Shown: piece by piece, positions 13,798 through 59,525 of the stretch
Layout of the letters: every line of letters begins with the position of its first letter
Numbering within the stretch: the first letter of the stretch is position 1
Sequence record: PZ583743.1
DNA length: 64,000 bases
Source of the DNA: a phage
Direction: 5' to 3' (one strand)
Notes under the pieces: generated by a model
Database searches by the model: none
The model's input: the letters and a program-made list of their open reading frames with translations, nothing else
Told to the model about the DNA's origin: nothing
Translations under genes and position numbers: made by a program

Positions 13798-13801
13798 CAA
13801 T

Positions 13802-13819
13802 GGGGACCGAAAGGTCCCC
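13802..13819. terminator. Bidirectional terminator hairpin GGGGACC-gaaa-GGTCCCC
   Basis: Perfect 7-bp GC stem between convergent gene 54 and the 96-aa ORF; T-run follows on the plus strand. Confidence 0.6.
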
Positions 13820-13825
13820 ATATTT

Positions 13826-14116
13826 TTATTTACGGAATGAAATAAAAGCAGCAACTGAAGCAACTAAACTGTCTTCAATATAAACTTCAATTTTTACCGG
13901 AGCTTCTGACTCAAATTTACCTGTTACTACACCTTGGAAAATGCTTTCAGTCTGTTCTGGCTTTGAAAAATTTTCAGAAGGAAAAATTCCGAACTTTTTA
14001 TCTGTTCCAAAAATTTTGATAAATTCATCGTAAACTGCTTCATTAAAAGCGTTATCAGCAGGAATAACGCCTTCAACTACGAGTTCTTGACCTAAAAAGC
14101 GTAAAGAAGATTTCAT
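13826..14116 (-). CDS. Hypothetical protein (alt.-3 position)
   Basis: 96-aa ORF preceded by a GAGGAA RBS and an early promoter. Confidence 0.7.
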   Translation of the reverse strand: MKSSLRFLGQELVVEGVIPADNAFNEAVYDEFIKIFGTDKKFGIFPSENFSKPEQTESIFQGVVTGKFESEAPVKIEVYIEDSLVASVAAFISFRK

Positions 14117-14147
14117 TTTGTGTTCCTCATGTTATGTCAGTAAAATT

Positions 14148-14177
14148 ATTATAACACAACACGAGGGACTTGTAAAC
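14148..14177 (-). promoter_or_regulatory. T4-type early promoter (GTTTAC, 18 nt, TGtTATAAT)
   Basis: Minus strand reads GTTTAC-aagtccctcgtgttgtgt-TATAAT with an extended -10 TG; drives the 96-aa ORF. Confidence 0.6.
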
Positions 14178-16234
14178 TACATTTTGAACTTTTTAGACAT
14201 TTCGTTGATGTTAACCAAAGAAGCCAAGATTTGAGAAACTTCGTTTTCCTCTTCTTTTGATTCTTCTACAAGGAATTGATTAAACCCAGCCATTGGACGA
14301 ACTTCACCAGTTTCCATTAGATGGTCGCCATCATATACCGATTCTTCTAATTGTTCAGAAGGAGGAACGATTGTGCCTTCGATTAGATACTTGTTATAAG
14401 CAGTTTCTTTCATCATGTATGTACTCACTTTATTAATCTTCAGCAAAATTCCACGCGGTAAAATAACTTCAGCTTCTGACGGAAATCCTGATAAATGACC
14501 CGGAACGATAACTTTGATTCGCTCAGCTCCTTTAATTACCATACCCACGCTAGTTTCAGCATCTTCATTCGCATAAGCAGAATGACTGCCCATATGCATT
14601 AAATCTTCAGCATCAACGGAACCTTCTCCTTCACCAGAAAATACTGCGCTGGAATCATCTAGAGCCATATAGTTTTTACCATACTCACCGAAGATATTTG
14701 GTTTAAGCGATGTGGATACGAAGTTCTTAAAATAGAACATTTTATTTTCAATATTATGACGTAAAGTTTTAAAGGTAACTTCTTGGCCACGGTAAAGCGT
14801 AGTTCCTGGAGGAAGAACTGATCCTTTGGCAAAAGCAGAATCCATCGTCTCGATGTGTTTAATAGCTCGTTCCATATATTCTTCACGAGTAGAATCCGGT
14901 TTACCTAAAAGGAACGAGTTCATTTCAACATATGAATCTGCACAATAATCTTCAATTACATCAGACTCAGCCTGAGTTAATCCTTTTGGAGTTACTTCGG
15001 TGCTTGCGTATTCATATGCCTGAGCAGCAGATTCATTAATCAATTTATAAATGCCATTCATGACAAATTGAATAATAGCTACCTTTTCATCTGGCGTGGC
15101 TTTAGAACCTTTAACTAAATCATTGATAATTTTCTTAATAACATCAAAGCTATTAGAAATATTAATGTCAGCGAGATCGCTTAAAATTTTATCGGTTTTA
15201 TAATCAAAGAATTCTTTATTCTTTAAATATTCTTGAGAACCTTGATGTGTTATATCGCTCTGCAGTCTGATAGACGGATCACGTAAACGTGCATGGGCCA
15301 ATGCAATATGATTTCGGAAGCTTTCTAGTTCATAATCGTTAGATTTAAAACGAGAAGCACTTCTCATACCACCGATAGCTCCTTTGCCGAAGTTTGAACC
15401 AATCTGAATAACGCCAGAGTTCATTGGTCCTTCTGCTTTATATACCGGAACTTTAGATTCAAACTCTTGATATTTCTTAGCAGCGAAGCTATCACCCTGA
15501 AGTGAAGCATCGACGGTAGAGTATTGAGCTTGTGCTGCTAATCGACGACTAATTTTAGTTTTCTGAATAACAGCTTGATCTGTGCGCTTATCATTTTCTA
15601 AAGCAATAGAAGCAGCAACAGCAACAGCTTTAGGAACAGCATTACCTGTTTTAACATCTACATAAACATCACCAACCTTTGATTCAACCTTTGTGAATAA
15701 CTCAGTTGAAATAGGAGGTACACCTGGAATGTCTTCTAAATTGGCATTTTTACGGTAAACCATAATATATGCATATTTCTTATCATAGTCCCAGATTTCT
15801 TTTAAAAGAACATATCGACCTGCTCCTTTAGTACGTACTAAACGGTCAGCAATAACTTGAATTTGTCGAGCTGCGCCGTTTGTTTTACTCTTTAGTACGC
15901 GAAATAGGCATGCGTCAATTTTATACTGTTTCATTGTTTGAAGAGCAGTATCAAAAACCGCATTAATAACACCAATTGGATTTCCACCCAAGTTTTTAAG
16001 TTTAACTAATGATAGTTTCTCATTAACACCTATCATTACGATATGCATCATTTTATCGCCTGGCTTAACGTTTTTATTTGTATCACCGCCAGAGGTGTAT
16101 GTACAAAATCTAAATCCAGGAAGCACACTTTCTTCACCTGCTTGAATAGCAAAAATTTGAGGTATTTTATGCTTAGGATTTAAGTTAACAACCGGCGCCG
16201 AAGCGCCGTCAAATAATTCTGTAATAAGTTCCAT
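14177..16234 (-). CDS. Alt-like ADP-ribosyltransferase paralog (685 aa)
   Basis: N-terminal ~230 aa near-identical to the adjacent Alt (MELITELFD…); C-terminal ART motifs YRGQ (Arg), FVSTSL (STS), SEAEVILPRG (ExE); starts 3 nt after the upstream Alt stop. Confidence 0.85.
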   Translation of the reverse strand: MELITELFDGASAPVVNLNPKHKIPQIFAIQAGEESVLPGFRFCTYTSGGDTNKNVKPGDKMMHIVMIGVNEKLSLVKLKNLGGNPIGVINAVFDTALQTMKQYKIDACLFRVLKSKTNGAARQIQVIADRLVRTKGAGRYVLLKEIWDYDKKYAYIMVYRKNANLEDIPGVPPISTELFTKVESKVGDVYVDVKTGNAVPKAVAVAASIALENDKRTDQAVIQKTKISRRLAAQAQYSTVDASLQGDSFAAKKYQEFESKVPVYKAEGPMNSGVIQIGSNFGKGAIGGMRSASRFKSNDYELESFRNHIALAHARLRDPSIRLQSDITHQGSQEYLKNKEFFDYKTDKILSDLADINISNSFDVIKKIINDLVKGSKATPDEKVAIIQFVMNGIYKLINESAAQAYEYASTEVTPKGLTQAESDVIEDYCADSYVEMNSFLLGKPDSTREEYMERAIKHIETMDSAFAKGSVLPPGTTLYRGQEVTFKTLRHNIENKMFYFKNFVSTSLKPNIFGEYGKNYMALDDSSAVFSGEGEGSVDAEDLMHMGSHSAYANEDAETSVGMVIKGAERIKVIVPGHLSGFPSEAEVILPRGILLKINKVSTYMMKETAYNKYLIEGTIVPPSEQLEESVYDGDHLMETGEVRPMAGFNQFLVEESKEEENEVSQILASLVNINEMSKKFKM

Positions 16235-16237
16235 GAT

Positions 16238-18334
16238 TTATCCTTGAACGAACTTGTAAGGCATGTTTGTAATATCTATGCAAGACGCAATAATTCCAAG
16301 AGATGATTCTACTTTCTGTTTAACATTTGATGAAACAAATGATGCAAAGTCAACTCTGTCTTCTATTTCAATATCACCTGTCATTGCAACTACTTCACCA
16401 GTTTCCATTAGACGGTCACCGTCATAAATTACTGATTCGGTGAGTTCTTCCGTAGTCATAACTTCAGCTTGAATGAGTTTTGTATTATTAGATGTTGTTC
16501 CGTCATTATTAGAAGCATCAGTTATTTTATTAACTTTGACCATCAATCCGCGCGGTAGAATTACTTCAGCTTCTGTTGCTATTCCGAGACTTCCTGGATA
16601 TACAACATTAACTTTATGAGCTCCATCAATTGCCCATCCTATTTGAACTTTAACGTATTCAGGATTTTCTTTATACGCTCTTATTTCGTTTGGATTAATA
16701 GTTATTCCTTCTTCATTTTTATCAACTGTTAATTCATTACGAGCTTCTGGTTCTAAAAGACCGATACCAGCATGTGTAATTCCAAAACGTCCAAAAATGA
16801 TAGGAGTTAAAGAAGTAGATACAAAATTTCTGAAATAGAACACTTTATTTTTAACTAGCGCTTCGTATATAGGAGCAGTCATACTTTGAGCACGATAAAC
16901 TGTAATGCCTTCTGGTATACGGTCACCATTTTCAAAAGCTGAATCTAAATTATTTATCGCAGATTCAATTTCTTTTTCACTCATTACATCATATCGTTCT
17001 GGATTGTAGCGGCCTAAAAGAAGATTATTGATGTCAGTATATCCTGATCCACAATACTCTCTAATGCCGCGCTTTTGCGATGGAGTATATTTAGAACCAT
17101 CACGTGCAATGGTAATATCAATCATTGGACCTGCACCAATTCCAGAAAAACTATAAATCATTCGTTTGAGGAATTTAGTTTTTGCTGCGTTCCAGGAATT
17201 TTTAGTTATTTCTTCCCAGACTTCATCTGGCTGCCCTTTACGAGTTTTATTATGTTTATCAAGCCAATTATCTTTATATTCTTCAAAGAATTGATTAACA
17301 GCTGCTGCGTATTTCTCTAAACATTTTATTGAAGTAGTTGGTTCATTTTTAATCGCATTAAGAATTACATCTTTAATTTTTTCAGAAACTTCATTAACCT
17401 CACTTTTTGAAAAGAATTTATAGTCATAGTGAAGTTCATCTGCGGTTCCTTCGGCAATAATTTTTGCTGCCTTAGTTTTAGAAGCTAATGAATTAATTCC
17501 AAGCTTCATTTCTTCTGCTTCTGGAATTAAAGGAGCAGTAGCAGGTTTATTAAAATTAGCTGCGGTAGATTCATACTTCTGAAATAATTCACTTTCAAAT
17601 CTAGAAGATTCTAATGATTGACTTTGTGCAATTGCTCTACGGGAAATTTTAACTTTAACTATTACAGCTTGGTCAGAACGTTTATCATTTTCTTGCGCAA
17701 TAGATGCTGCAATTGCTTCATTTTTAGTTACTTGAGCTCCAGTATCTTTATTGATATAAACATCGCCGACCTTCGATTCAACTTTAGTAAAGAGCTCGGT
17801 ACTAATTTCCGGAACTCCTGGAATGTCTTCTAGTGATACATTTTTGCGATGTATAAGAATATATGCATACTTTTTATCATAATCCCAGAGTTCCTTAAGA
17901 AGGACGTATCTGCCACCTGAACGACTACGGATAAGTCTATCAGCAATAAGTTGAATTTGTCGAGCTTGACCAGCAGTTTTAGACTTAAGAATACGAAGCA
18001 TGCAGGCATCAATTTTATACTGACGCATCGTCTGCATTGCAACAGTAAAAACTGAATTGATATAATTAATTGGGCTTGGACCGAGACCTTTCAATTTAGC
18101 AATTGAACCTTTAGCAGTTAATGTAAAAGGAACAATGTGCATCATTTTATCGCCCATCTTTAGATCACGGTTAGTATCACCTCCAGATGTATAGGTACAT
18201 AAACGAAAGCCTGGTTGTTCAATTGCGTCATCAACATGAACTGAAAAAATTTGCGGTATTTTCTTCTTTGGATTTAAGTTTGTAATCGGAAGAGTAGTAT
18301 CTTCGTCAAATAATTCTGTAATGAGTTCCATCAT
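16238..18334 (-). CDS. alt: Alt, head-packaged ADP-ribosyltransferase (698 aa)
   Basis: MELITELFDEDTTLPITNLNPKK… N-terminus; ART motifs VYRAQ, FVSTSL, TEAEVILPRG; late promoter upstream; which of the two paralogs is orthologous to T4 alt is uncertain. Confidence 0.85.
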   Translation of the reverse strand: MMELITELFDEDTTLPITNLNPKKKIPQIFSVHVDDAIEQPGFRLCTYTSGGDTNRDLKMGDKMMHIVPFTLTAKGSIAKLKGLGPSPINYINSVFTVAMQTMRQYKIDACMLRILKSKTAGQARQIQLIADRLIRSRSGGRYVLLKELWDYDKKYAYILIHRKNVSLEDIPGVPEISTELFTKVESKVGDVYINKDTGAQVTKNEAIAASIAQENDKRSDQAVIVKVKISRRAIAQSQSLESSRFESELFQKYESTAANFNKPATAPLIPEAEEMKLGINSLASKTKAAKIIAEGTADELHYDYKFFSKSEVNEVSEKIKDVILNAIKNEPTTSIKCLEKYAAAVNQFFEEYKDNWLDKHNKTRKGQPDEVWEEITKNSWNAAKTKFLKRMIYSFSGIGAGPMIDITIARDGSKYTPSQKRGIREYCGSGYTDINNLLLGRYNPERYDVMSEKEIESAINNLDSAFENGDRIPEGITVYRAQSMTAPIYEALVKNKVFYFRNFVSTSLTPIIFGRFGITHAGIGLLEPEARNELTVDKNEEGITINPNEIRAYKENPEYVKVQIGWAIDGAHKVNVVYPGSLGIATEAEVILPRGLMVKVNKITDASNNDGTTSNNTKLIQAEVMTTEELTESVIYDGDRLMETGEVVAMTGDIEIEDRVDFASFVSSNVKQKVESSLGIIASCIDITNMPYKFVQG

Positions 18335-23076: not shown

Positions 23077-23186
23077 TTTATTCTCCTTTGTTTGTGTAAG
23101 ATAATACTATCACAAAGGAACCACACTGTAAACAACTTTGTGCAATCTTTGGAAAATAAAAAAGGACTCCCGAAGGAGTCCTCAAC

Positions 23187-28966: not shown

Positions 28967-29316
28967 TTAGAAAGGTCCTGGATGTCTTCTGCGAACTTGT
29001 TGAAGGAGTTGTTGATTTGTTTTTCAACCAATCCTGGCTTATGAGCCACCACATCCGCCTTCTTTGCATCTTTGCGCAGTTTTTCATTTTCACGCTCAAT
29101 AGCAGCAATTGCCTCACGATTTTTATTATTCATCGCATCAATATAATTATACTGAATTCGCAAATTATCTAATGCTAAAGCGTTTTCATTGGCCGTTTTT
29201 GTAATTTCAGTAACCGATGTTTCTAATCTTTCTACCTTATTTTTTAAAATAATAGATGTTCCGCCAAATGCTATTACAAGTAATAGCAATCCAGCTGTAA
29301 AATTACTTACATGCAT
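28963..29316 (-). CDS. i-spanin (Rz-like): N-terminal TM anchor plus periplasmic coiled coil
   Basis: N-terminal hydrophobic helix LLLLVIAFGGTSIIL followed by a charged heptad-like region; ATGA-coupled to the o-spanin. Confidence 0.7.
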   Translation of the reverse strand: MHVSNFTAGLLLLVIAFGGTSIILKNKVERLETSVTEITKTANENALALDNLRIQYNYIDAMNNKNREAIAAIERENEKLRKDAKKADVVAHKPGLVEKQINNSFNKFAEDIQDLSK

Positions 29317-29810
29317 AAAGTTTTAATAACCTCTACAATATCGTCTTGAGAAAGACCGTTAATTAAAATATGATGTTCAGCTGGAGATTTAGAAATTTTA
29401 AAGCATGCCTCAACATCTTCTGCCATATCCGATGCGCTACGATTTGGATTGCTAATTCCAAGACGATGTTTTCCCGTCAAAGGATTAACGATGATGTAGC
29501 ATTTACAGCTATTAATGTGAACATTAGGTTGAGTCTGATTAATGAATACTTCGCAATCATATTTCGCAAGCTGATTTTCTAAAAAGACTTTCATCTCCTC
29601 AACCGCATCAGGAAGCATATCACGGGCTTGCTCAAGACGACGATTTCGATATTCTTTAATAGTCGTTTTCCGCTTGACTTGCTTAGCTAAATCTTTCTTA
29701 AGATCGGTGATATATCCAACTCGACGATTTCCTTTAAATACAGAAATCCCATCTGTAGTATCACCATATGCTTCAACGACCATTTCAGTAGTAATAAGCT
29801 GTAAATCCAT
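29307..29810 (-). CDS. alc: Alc, host transcription shutoff on cytosine-containing DNA
   Basis: 167/168 aa; T4 alc length and position between the spanins and rnlA. Confidence 0.85.
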   Translation of the reverse strand: MDLQLITTEMVVEAYGDTTDGISVFKGNRRVGYITDLKKDLAKQVKRKTTIKEYRNRRLEQARDMLPDAVEEMKVFLENQLAKYDCEVFINQTQPNVHINSCKCYIIVNPLTGKHRLGISNPNRSASDMAEDVEACFKISKSPAEHHILINGLSQDDIVEVIKTLCM

Positions 29811-29841
29811 CATAAAGCCCTCATGTTATGTCAGTAAGTCT

Positions 29842-29871
29842 ACTATAACACAACACGAGGGACTTGTAAAC
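29842..29871 (-). promoter_or_regulatory. T4-type early promoter for alc (GTTTAC, 18 nt, TATAGT)
   Basis: Near-identical to the promoter at 14148-14177, including the 5'UTR sequence CUGACAUAACAUGAGG. Confidence 0.55.
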
Positions 29872-29873
29872 AG

Positions 29874-31461
<1,588 letters not shown>

Positions 31462-38254: not shown

Positions 38255-38284
38255 ATAGTATCACACTACTACCCTTCTGTAAAC
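38255..38284 (-). promoter_or_regulatory. T4-type early promoter (GTTTAC, 18 nt, TACTAT)
   Basis: Minus-strand GTTTAC at 38279-38284 and -10 at 38255-38260, upstream of the 80-aa ORF. Confidence 0.45.
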
Positions 38285-38967: not shown

Positions 38968-39040
38968 GCCGATAGTTGTATAGTACCACAGTATGCTTTG
39001 GTTGTAAACCGTTTTGTGAAAAAATTTTTGAAATAAAAAA
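38968..39040 (-). repeat. Repeated terminator-UP element-early promoter cassette, copy 1 (contains GTTTAC at 39004-39009)
   Basis: About 70 nt near-identical to 55283-55356 and partly to 58905-58975 (…gttgatagttgtatagtaccacagtatgctttggttgtaaac…gttttgtgaaaaaa…tttgaaataaaaaa). Confidence 0.7.
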
Positions 39041-39059
39041 GGGGACCTCTAGGGTCCCC
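39031..39059 (-). terminator. Rho-independent terminator of gene 32 (GGGGACCCUAGAGGUCCCC + U-run)
   Basis: Perfect 7-bp GC stem followed by UUUUUUAUUUC on the minus strand, 20 nt after the gene 32 stop. Confidence 0.7.
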
Positions 39060-55282: not shown

Positions 55283-55356
55283 AGTTGATAGTTGTATAGT
55301 ACCACAGTATGCTTTGGTTGTAAACAGTTTTGTGAAAAAAATTTTGAAATAAAAAA
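55283..55356 (-). repeat. Repeated terminator-UP element-early promoter cassette, copy 2 (motA promoter; GTTTAC at 55320-55325)
   Basis: Near-identical to 38968-39040; -10 TACTAT at about 55296-55301; A/T-rich UP element. Confidence 0.7.
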
Positions 55357-55376
55357 GGGAGAGCCTCAGCTCTCCC
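55347..55376 (-). terminator. Terminator GGGAGAGCUGAGGCUCUCCC + U-run downstream of gene 52
   Basis: 8-bp GC stem followed by UUUUUUAUUUC on the minus strand. Confidence 0.65.
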
Positions 55377-58304: not shown

Positions 58305-58679
58305 AGTAAGCGTTTAATACATCAATCATTAAAACGATTGGGAATATACTTAAAACTACTAGTATTATAACTACATTCCATATAGCTTTAACAATCTTTT
58401 TCATTTTCTATTCCTCCGTAGTTGATAGAGTAATAATACCACAGAGGAACAGTCTTGTAAACAACTTTTTTAAAAATATTCGTAATAAATGTGAATACCA
58501 ATCACCACTGCCGAAACTTGTGCAACCCACCACGCACAAGCAATAAGCACAGAATTAAAAATTTTCATAATAACCTCATCACAAAAGTAAATGTTAAACA
58601 AATTAATGGAATACTAATTAACCAAACGAAACACCACCATAATGAACTCATAGTTCAATCTCAACGATTTTCATTTTAC

Positions 58680-58904: not shown

Positions 58905-58975
58905 ATCAGTTGATAGTTGTATAGTACCACAGTCCTTGTGGTATGTAAACCGTTTTGTGAAAATTTTTTAAATGG
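58905..58975 (-). repeat. Repeated UP element-early promoter cassette, copy 3 (GTTTAC at 58945-58950)
   Basis: …cagttgatagttgtatagtaccacag…gtatgtaaaccgttttgtgaaaa… related to copies 1 and 2. Confidence 0.6.
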
Positions 58976-59525
58976 AAAGATACCATCCGTTGTAGTTGCT
59001 TTTTCTTACAACCTTACGAAGGTCTTCTCTATCACCGATGAACTTCGGAGTGTACTGGATGACACCTGGATGAATTTCTTTAGTGTTGAATATAATTATA
59101 CAGTCAGCGACTTGGTGATTCAGAATGGGCCCTAGATTTATTCCAGAACCGTATGGATACTCCCCGCTGCATCCGGTTGTTACCGAAATCCAACGTGAGT
59201 CAGTTTGATGTGTTTTGACTTCTACACGAAGCCCACAGTATTTTGGATGCGCCAATACATCCCATGCGTAAGTATACGGGTCATTAACATCCTCTTGGCC
59301 TTTGTTAACATATCCGCTTAGCCAATCTGCTACAAAAAATTCTGCGTACACAGCGATACGGCATCTTTCAATAACTTCTGCTTTATCCTGATTAGGATTT
59401 TGTTTTAAAGAGTATCTTGCTGTATCAGCAATTTTGACCTTCATTTCACTAGTCAAATCATTGTTCGATAGGGTAAATGTCGGAATCTGAAATAGTCTCT
59501 GTAAACCTGGATTCGTTTTCTGCAT
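58968..59525 (-). CDS. denB: Endonuclease IV (DenB)
   Basis: 185 aa; T4 DenB length and position. Confidence 0.88.
   Translation of the reverse strand: MQKTNPGLQRLFQIPTFTLSNNDLTSEMKVKIADTARYSLKQNPNQDKAEVIERCRIAVYAEFFVADWLSGYVNKGQEDVNDPYTYAWDVLAHPKYCGLRVEVKTHQTDSRWISVTTGCSGEYPYGSGINLGPILNHQVADCIIIFNTKEIHPGVIQYTPKFIGDREDLRKVVRKSNYNGWYLSI

Follow-up and report, generated by a model that had tools for sequence, protein, structure and literature searches.

In a 64,000-nt stretch of phage DNA (sequence record PZ583743.1; the whole of this stretch is referred to here as the window), the genes alt.-3 and alc are each preceded by a nearly identical copy of a 53-nt early-promoter cassette, in which the spacer between the two promoter boxes is complementary to the end of the transcribed leader, where the Shine-Dalgarno sequence lies. 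RNA that reads into the cassette from upstream is predicted to fold into a hairpin covering this sequence. The cassette is of the promoter-early stem-loop (PeSL) type, and it is on balance probable, as a model, that it acts as an early-only translation gate and was copied from alc to alt.-3. As a repeat the element is ordinary; it is moderately interesting since a conserved hairpin, embedded in the promoter and sequestering the Shine-Dalgarno sequence, would explain the identity of the two copies.

The two copies, which make up repeat family D5, lie on the minus strand at 14177-14125 (copy A, upstream of alt.-3) and 29871-29819 (copy B, upstream of alc) and align without gaps at 49 of 53 positions (92.5%). 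A preliminary description of this DNA had noted near-identity upstream of a 96-aa open reading frame (ORF) and of alc; direct alignment confirms it, and no chance match of this kind is expected. Two exact sub-blocks are shared, one of 28 nt (GTTTACAAGTCCCTCGTGTTGTGTTATA) and one of 19 nt (TTACTGACATAACATGAGG), each of which occurs exactly twice in the window, against 0.00 and 0.03 occurrences, respectively, in dinucleotide shuffles. Outside the two promoter hexamers the copies agree at 38 of 41 positions, above the limit of 80% that had been set for this comparison, and the suggestion that identity past the hexamers points to a shared element is supported. The four differences fall at module positions 29, 32, 33 and 34, one in the -10 box and three just downstream. 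Among the 78 pairs that can be formed from the 13 recognisable early-promoter cassettes in the window, the A/B pair ranks at the top with 92% identity; the next pair reaches 77% and the median is 49%.

The cassette fills its intergenic gap entirely, between alt.-2 and alt.-3 in copy A and between rnlA and alc in copy B. The shared block starts at the G of GTTTAC, which is the last base of the upstream TAG in copy A and stands 2 nt past the TAG in copy B; it ends at the Shine-Dalgarno GAGG, 8 nt short of the alt.-3 ATG (14116) and 5 or 8 nt before the two ATGs of alc (29813 and 29810). The identity had been described as extending up to the start codon; it does run through the leader to the Shine-Dalgarno sequence, but the final 5-8 nt ahead of the ATG and all that lies downstream are unrelated, as are the flanks upstream beyond the stop codon. 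What is duplicated is an early promoter with its transcribed leader in front of two unrelated genes, as had been proposed, alt.-3 encoding a DUF5498 protein and Alc belonging to PF17527. The genes concerned are the following.

13826-14116, minus strand: alt.-3, 96 aa, DUF5498, function unknown.
29307-29813, minus strand: alc, PF17527, inhibitor of host transcription, 100% identical to T4 Alc.
14177-16234, minus strand: alt paralogue (alt.-2), a full-length second Alt-like ADP-ribosyltransferase, upstream neighbour of alt.-3.
29874-31034 (ORF as listed), minus strand: rnlA (RNA ligase 1), upstream neighbour of alc.

All four genes share the minus strand. The second of the two adjacent alc ATGs is the start annotated in T4. 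The alt.-2 stop codon TAG (14177-14179) overlaps the first G of copy A, and that of rnlA (TAG, 29876-29874) lies 2 nt ahead of copy B. Many T4-type phages (genus Tequatrovirus) match the 1-kb stretch around copy A at 98-99% identity, with Shigella phage SF2-1 as best match, and the matching T4-type annotation comprises gene 54, alt.-3 and an Alt-like ADP-ribosyltransferase.

Both copies display the pattern of T4 early sigma-70 promoters: TTTACA-17-TATAAT in copy A (11/12 consensus matches) and TTTACA-17-TATAGT in copy B (10/12), both with an extended -10 box (TG) and a 17-nt spacer whose last three bases are TGT. It has been established that T4 early promoters combine a GTTTAC -35 motif, a 17-nt spacer, TGn, a TAnnnT -10 box and an A/T-rich upstream region, with a consensus extending past the hexamers, and Alc has been described as an early product (PMC2988021). 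The A-runs upstream of the -35 boxes (AAAAAGTTCAAAATG and AAAAATTATAAAAAATTTA) lie within coding sequence and differ between the copies. Transcription start sites were placed by the usual 7-nt distance from the -10 box, which gives a predicted leader of 22-25 nt (ACUGACAUAACAUGAGG...) with the Shine-Dalgarno sequence at its end. The parts of the two cassettes, with the analysis from which each was derived, are listed below.

14125-14177, minus strand: copy A cassette (alignment, repeat family D5).
14171-14176, minus strand: copy A -35 box TTTACA, inside the GTTTAC motif (consensus scan, 11/12 matches).
14154-14167, minus strand: copy A 5' arm CCCUCGUGUUGUGU, which is the promoter spacer, upstream of the predicted start (folds).
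14148-14153, minus strand: copy A -10 box TATAAT, in the hairpin loop (consensus scan; predicted start at A 14141).
14124-14137, minus strand: copy A 3' arm ACAUAACAUGAGGA, transcribed leader including the Shine-Dalgarno GAGG at 14125-14128 (folds).
29819-29871, minus strand: copy B cassette (alignment, repeat family D5).
29865-29870, minus strand: copy B -35 box TTTACA (consensus scan).
29848-29861, minus strand: copy B 5' arm CCCUCGUGUUGUGU, which is the promoter spacer (folds).
29842-29847, minus strand: copy B -10 box TATAGT, in the loop (consensus scan; predicted start at A 29835).
29818-29831, minus strand: copy B 3' arm ACAUAACAUGAGGG, leader with the Shine-Dalgarno GAGG at 29819-29822 (folds).

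The spacer CCCUCGUGUUGUGU (module positions 11-24) and the leader segment ACAUAACAUGAGG(G) (41-54) are complementary, with two G.U pairs and a 16-nt loop (25-40) that holds both the -10 box (25-30) and the predicted start site, so that the promoter is embedded in the hairpin. Folding of 75-nt read-through RNAs gave -22.3 kcal/mol (z -4.87) for alt.-3 and -29.4 kcal/mol (z -5.39) for alc in the window, and -23.0 and -24.7 kcal/mol, respectively, in T4; over the four folds z ranges from -4.4 to -5.4, and none of 200 shuffles was as stable. The preliminary description had looked to the shared leader for structure. The leader alone, as present in RNA from the cassette's own promoter, is predicted to be unstructured (0 kcal/mol for alt.-3 and -1.8 kcal/mol for alc, z near 0); pairing is found instead between promoter spacer and leader in read-through RNA. 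Since the spacer is not transcribed from the cassette's own promoter, pairing of the arms is confined to read-through transcripts. The Shine-Dalgarno sequence is unpaired with a predicted probability of 0.00 in read-through RNA versus 0.54 in own-promoter RNA at alc, and 0.14 versus 0.43 at alt.-3. When the 76 gene starts of the window are ranked by Shine-Dalgarno occlusion, alc comes 1st and alt.-3 11th. The Shine-Dalgarno sequence is hence predicted to be paired in RNA initiated upstream, and co-variation across genera, considered below, agrees.

The terminator scan revealed no terminator-like site from alt.-2 to alt.-3, nor from denA/rnlA to alc, and three T4 middle promoters (PI-TevIII, PnrdB and PnrdA) are located on the alc strand upstream of this gene (PMC2988021, Table 1); read-through RNA is consequently to be expected. 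The helix, of 14 bp and extendable to about 20 bp at T4 alc, follows directly on the upstream stop codon, a position that would also suit an RNA processing or stability element, namely a 3' stem-loop protecting the cleaved upstream mRNA or a target of an RNase specific for double strands. Such a role is very improbable, as an Rfam search of both sites (E up to 1) returned no family match and as it leaves unexplained why the 3' arm is the Shine-Dalgarno sequence.

The twin arrangement is not peculiar to the window. The 53-mer, searched against 50,697 phage records, retrieved 500 records with 999 places, all of them T4-type and including T4, T2 and T6. An IMG/VR pattern scan for further copies yielded 7 loci only, and GenBank phage records were sampled instead. 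In the genomes read (14 alt.-3 and 13 alc copies, from T4, T2, T6, RB68, UFV13, G2133, BCPSen003, GBLB0003, SHFML-26, the window and metagenomic contigs) the copies always occupy the same two sites and follow one consensus, GTTTACAAGTCCCTCGTGTTGTGTTATAGTAGTCTTACTGACATAACATGAGG. The two T4 copies are identical at 52 of 53 positions, and those of one IMG/VR metagenomic contig at 53 of 53. Because the pair is found in all 500 matching records, the near-identity is, as far as these sequences tell, a fixed trait of T4-type phages and not a recent event in the source phage, contrary to the recent recombination that had been put forward as one explanation.

The same data bear on the idea that the repeat is in the main a substrate for recombination, be it a linker that serves modular shuffling or a scar left by a recent exchange. 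It is known that PeSLs mediate insertions, deletions and mini-circles (PMC2839356) and that T4 recombination needs <50 bp of homology (cited in PMC2839356), and the gene beside copy A is indeed variable, being a full alt paralogue here and present as remnants in T4. Against this, the matching records all carry the pair at its two fixed sites, the 13-16 kb between the copies contain the essential genes 30 and 31, which makes a deletion inviable, and 11 T4-type genome stretches spanning both sites (the window, T4 and two metagenomic contigs among the sources) showed no rearrangement between them. We give this explanation hardly any weight.

The changes within the T4-type copies can be set against the predicted fold. 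All four differences between copies A and B of the window fall in the loop, and stem changes across the sampled copies mostly keep or improve pairing, 94.4% of the cells in the T4-type count being paired. Pair 15-50 is mostly C-G, U.G in alt.-3 of T6, T2, UFV13 and BCPSen003, and U-A in alt.-3 of GBLB0003 and SHFML-26; in many genomes G.U has become A-U at pair 16-49, and pairs 13-52 and 24-41 show a wobble once each. The single pair-breaking change is G16U in T6 alc. Some variants occur at both sites of one genome, that is, G16A (RB68, BCPSen003, GBLB0003), T27C (GBLB0003) and G32A (T2), and hint at occasional gene conversion, a sign that is not statistically secure.

Synteny of rnlA and alc, with 58-72 nt between the two genes, allowed a wider comparison at alc over nine genus-level lineages (Tequatrovirus, Dhakavirus, Mosigvirus, Karamvirus, a Klebsiella phage lineage, Tegunavirus, Gelderlandvirus, Roskildevirus and Kanagawavirus). 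Pairing between spacer and Shine-Dalgarno sequence is found in six of the nine, with arms that differ and co-vary (5' arm / 3' arm):

T4: CCCUCGUGUUGUGU / ACAUAACAUGAGG
IME08: UCUCCUCAU / AUGAGGAGA
Cronus: UCUCCUCAG / CUGAGGAGA
Roth80: UCCUCAU / AUGAGGA
AS6: UCUCCAUUUG / CAAAUGGAGA
AKM_NP4: UCUCCGUUUAGUU / AACUAAACGGAGA

A MAFFT alignment of the alc spacers across genera contained too many indels for a column-wise count of pairs, and a permutation test on duplexes was used. The mean energy of the spacer-leader duplex is -14.3 kcal/mol for partners from the same phage versus -9.4 kcal/mol for mismatched partners, and none of 20,000 permutations was as good, a test that overstates independence because the nine lineages are phylogenetically related. 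In five of the nine lineages, the spacer and leader of one phage are each other's best-ranking partners. Despite the kinship, several distinct compensatory changes are visible at alc.

The situation at alt.-3 is different. IME08 and RB69 have both genes behind early promoters, but their two cassettes are just 74-75% alike, compared with 92-98% in the window and T4; VR25 has an early promoter at alt.-3 only, its alc following another ORF with no recognisable promoter. None of the alt.-3 promoters of IME08, RB69 and VR25 has this spacer-leader hairpin, which suggests that the hairpin cassette is ancestral at alc and secondary at alt.-3, where it looks to have been installed in the ancestor of the T4-type phages.

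The alc leader of RB69 (positions 1515-1582 of the stretch read, minus strand) includes ACAACACGAGG, which is fully Watson-Crick complementary to the T4-type spacer CCUCGUGUUGU, and the duplex of the T4 spacer with the RB69 leader reaches -20.6 kcal/mol. The spacer of RB69 itself is different and internally palindromic; judging from these sequences, the promoter half of the RB69 cassette seems to have been swapped.

A single model would interconnect these observations. A strong sigma-70 early promoter would initiate transcription about 7 nt past the -10 box and yield a 22-25 nt leader ending in GAGG. Transcripts arriving from upstream (through rnlA, denA and nrdB for alc; through alt and alt.-2 for alt.-3) would carry both arms and form a stable hairpin that hides the ribosome-binding site, whereas RNA from the embedded promoter, lacking the 5' arm, would leave that site open. 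Alc and Alt.-3 would in this way be translated just from their own immediate-early transcripts, and their synthesis would end with the shut-off of the early promoters despite continued middle or late read-through. Earlier, in the ancestor of the T4-type phages, the alc cassette would have replaced the cassette of alt.-3 by recombination or gene conversion. Constraint on the stem, perhaps with occasional further conversion, would since have kept the copies alike, changes gathering in the loop.

Several points weigh against this model. The gate is a prediction, and the start sites follow from spacing. The copying step has to be argued separately, because stem constraint explains the conservation of each copy and not the identity of A with B. 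The hairpin could be partly melted by ribosomes that terminate on the upstream gene, 2-3 nt ahead of the 5' arm. Besides the kinship of the lineages in the permutation test, covariation within T4-type phages is not significant, two pairs being changed on both sides and 90 of 500 column shuffles doing equally well, owing to the little variation present. Finally, occlusion is not universal: RB69 alc has no such hairpin, and the one at alc of TG1 and PEi20 spans the -10 box and start site while the Shine-Dalgarno sequence stays free.

The low covariation is also what one would see if the repeat had no function at the RNA level, a strong promoter cassette having simply been copied, with little time or freedom to diverge, and the complementarity of its arms being a by-product. 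The consensus of T4 early promoters beyond the hexamers (PMC2988021), the presence in the window of another near-identical promoter family (D2) and the variants shared by both sites of one genome, with their hint of conversion, would all suit this explanation. It has more difficulty with fold z values of about -5 that 0 of 200 shuffles equal, with the series from C-G through U.G to U-A at pair 15-50, seen in two independent genomes, and with the other genera, which keep the pairing of spacer and Shine-Dalgarno sequence while both arms change. We consider it unlikely.

The hairpins of TG1 and PEi20, kept without covering the Shine-Dalgarno sequence, would in turn suit a transcription attenuator or insulator, a role proposed for PeSLs, that stops or dampens incoming upstream transcription and leaves the downstream gene dependent on its own promoter; occlusion of the Shine-Dalgarno sequence would then be incidental. 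In its anatomy the cassette, extending from stop codon to ATG and comprising an early promoter, a stem-loop that overlaps the -10 box and a 3' Shine-Dalgarno sequence, matches the PeSLs (PMC2839356; PMC4122927), one of which, from RB49, has been tested as a terminator (PMC2839356), and CUUUAU follows the hairpin at alc. At alt.-3, on the other hand, the hairpin is followed by AACACAAAAUG, which has no U tract, and the terminator scan called neither site, while it did call the terminator after alt.-3 (13800-13821). Moreover, in six of nine lineages it is specifically the Shine-Dalgarno sequence that the 3' arm follows, a feature that a plain terminator does not need. An attenuator is accordingly an improbable account, on a par with the absence of any RNA function.

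If the cassette does act as an early-only translation gate, this would help to explain how immediate-early synthesis of the Alc type ends while upstream transcription runs through; the mechanisms that end T4 early gene expression are still incompletely known (PMC2988021). It would also assign a function to the conserved, unexplained spacers of T-even early promoters and make promoter, translational lock and ribosome site movable as one 53-nt unit. If the gate fails, what is left is merely a pair of conserved twin promoters in a very well studied genome.

The relationship between spacer and leader extends to other promoters of the window. Over 12 window promoters, duplexes of a spacer with its own leader outdo mismatched combinations, with a permutation p of 0.0013 when one twin is removed and 0.016 when both are. 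A broader proposition, which may hold but which we would not yet call probable, is that in T4 and its relatives (Tevenvirinae) many early-promoter spacers double as anti-Shine-Dalgarno sequences, the promoter being at once start signal and translational lock, with the alc arrangement ancestral in at least six genus-level lineages and the cassette portable, as from alc to alt.-3. If true, it would add a general layer of early-only gating to the temporal control of T4 and provide a translational function for PeSL stem-loops.

Individual promoters of the window vary in this respect. At 58461 (ATG 58404) the spacer pairs with its own Shine-Dalgarno sequence (-21.5 kcal/mol; unpaired probability 0.00 in read-through versus 0.84 in own-promoter RNA), and the same holds at 23132 (ATG 23076; 0.20 versus 0.99). 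The promoters at 38283, 26546 and 22740 have hairpins spanning just the -10 box and start site. Family D2, the second near-identical family of early promoters, is read on the minus strand at 38971-39043, 55287-55359 and 58912-58984; two of its copies are 97% identical over 73 nt, from an A/T-rich upstream element to about +9, the third stands at 73%, and the leaders diverge after that point.

RegA and RegB were both considered for the leader. A shared RegA operator is unlikely, as the identity stops before the AUG region where RegA binds. A RegB target (GGAG) was likewise discarded for the T4-type module, which reads GAGG(A/G) and not GGAG and offers no obvious RegB site. GGAG, the core of the RegB motif, is present in the Shine-Dalgarno sequence of several non-T4-type alc leaders, five including RB69. 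RegB cleavage is sensitive to RNA structure (PMC3014915), and the hairpin of the genera that bear GGAG could also shield this site from RegB in read-through RNA. A further peculiarity of the leader is the motif AUGAGG, in which an AUG within the Shine-Dalgarno sequence opens a mini-ORF of 4-5 codons whose UGA overlaps the main start (AUGA; 14114-14130 and 29811-29824 in the window, minus strand). The mini-ORF is found at alt.-3 in the window, T4, IME08, RB69 and VR25, and at alc in the window and T4, not in IME08; it is probably a by-product of spacing.

The surroundings of copy A hold two full-length alt-type ADP-ribosyltransferase genes in tandem, at 14177-16234 (685 aa) and 16238-18334 (698 aa), tied by the repeat families D1, D9, D11 and D15 at a spacing of about 2095 nt; in T4 the second copy survives only as the remnants alt.-1 and alt.-2. 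Between the convergent genes 54 and alt.-3, a G+C-rich hairpin at 13800-13821, GGGGACC(UUUCG)GGUCCCC, with T-runs on both strands, looks from its sequence like a bidirectional intrinsic terminator.

The closest precedent for the predicted gate is provided by the T4 genes e (lysozyme), soc, 49 and I-TevI, in which it has been shown that the Shine-Dalgarno sequence and/or the AUG are buried in long RNAs initiated upstream, while RNA from a late promoter, without the 5' arm, is translatable (PMC3014915). The predicted geometry is the same here, with the 5' arm upstream of the start site and the 3' arm over the Shine-Dalgarno sequence. The timing is reversed: those genes use late promoters and are translated late only, whereas the cassette, which does not have the form of a late (gp55) promoter, relies on an early sigma-70 promoter and would be translated early only. 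A further difference is that its 5' arm is the promoter's own spacer, and its effect is a predicted one. The 2010 review of T4 post-transcriptional control (PMC3014915) never mentions alc, the older T4 literature being outside this check.

With regard to PeSL cassettes (Arbiol 2010; Comeau 2014), these have been described as TTTACW-N17-TAYWAT promoters of T4/PST type repeated at many sites per genome, with a stem-loop often between the -35 and -10 boxes or overlapping the latter and a Shine-Dalgarno sequence at the 3' end (PMC2839356; PMC4122927). The intergenic layout from stop codon to ATG is common to both, the present cassette beginning 0-2 nt after the stop and ending at GAGG, and so is the stable promoter-associated stem-loop, whose loop here holds the -10 box. 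The stems of PeSLs have been read as terminators or recombination linkers and typically pair a G-run with a C-run in RB49, whereas the partners here are the spacer and the Shine-Dalgarno sequence. A U tract is absent at alt.-3 and weak at alc, the scan called neither site, and the terminator reading appears to fit poorly here. PeSLs flank orphan ORFs in hyperplastic regions, while the present copies stand 13-16 kb apart around essential genes. As for the link of PeSLs to indels and gene swaps, alt.-2 beside copy A is variable, but no rearrangement ends inside the cassette and copy B lies in synteny conserved across nine lineages.

The last comparison concerns the extended consensus of T4 early promoters (the 'uber' UP/-35/TGn/-10 promoter), with which both copies share GTTTAC, the 17-nt spacer, TGn and TAnnnT. 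That consensus goes with a median identity of about 49% between window cassettes, as against 92% for the A/B pair (98% in T4), and the identity of A and B includes positions without known RNA polymerase contact. Taken together, the twin cassette looks like another case of known T4 designs and not a new kind of element.

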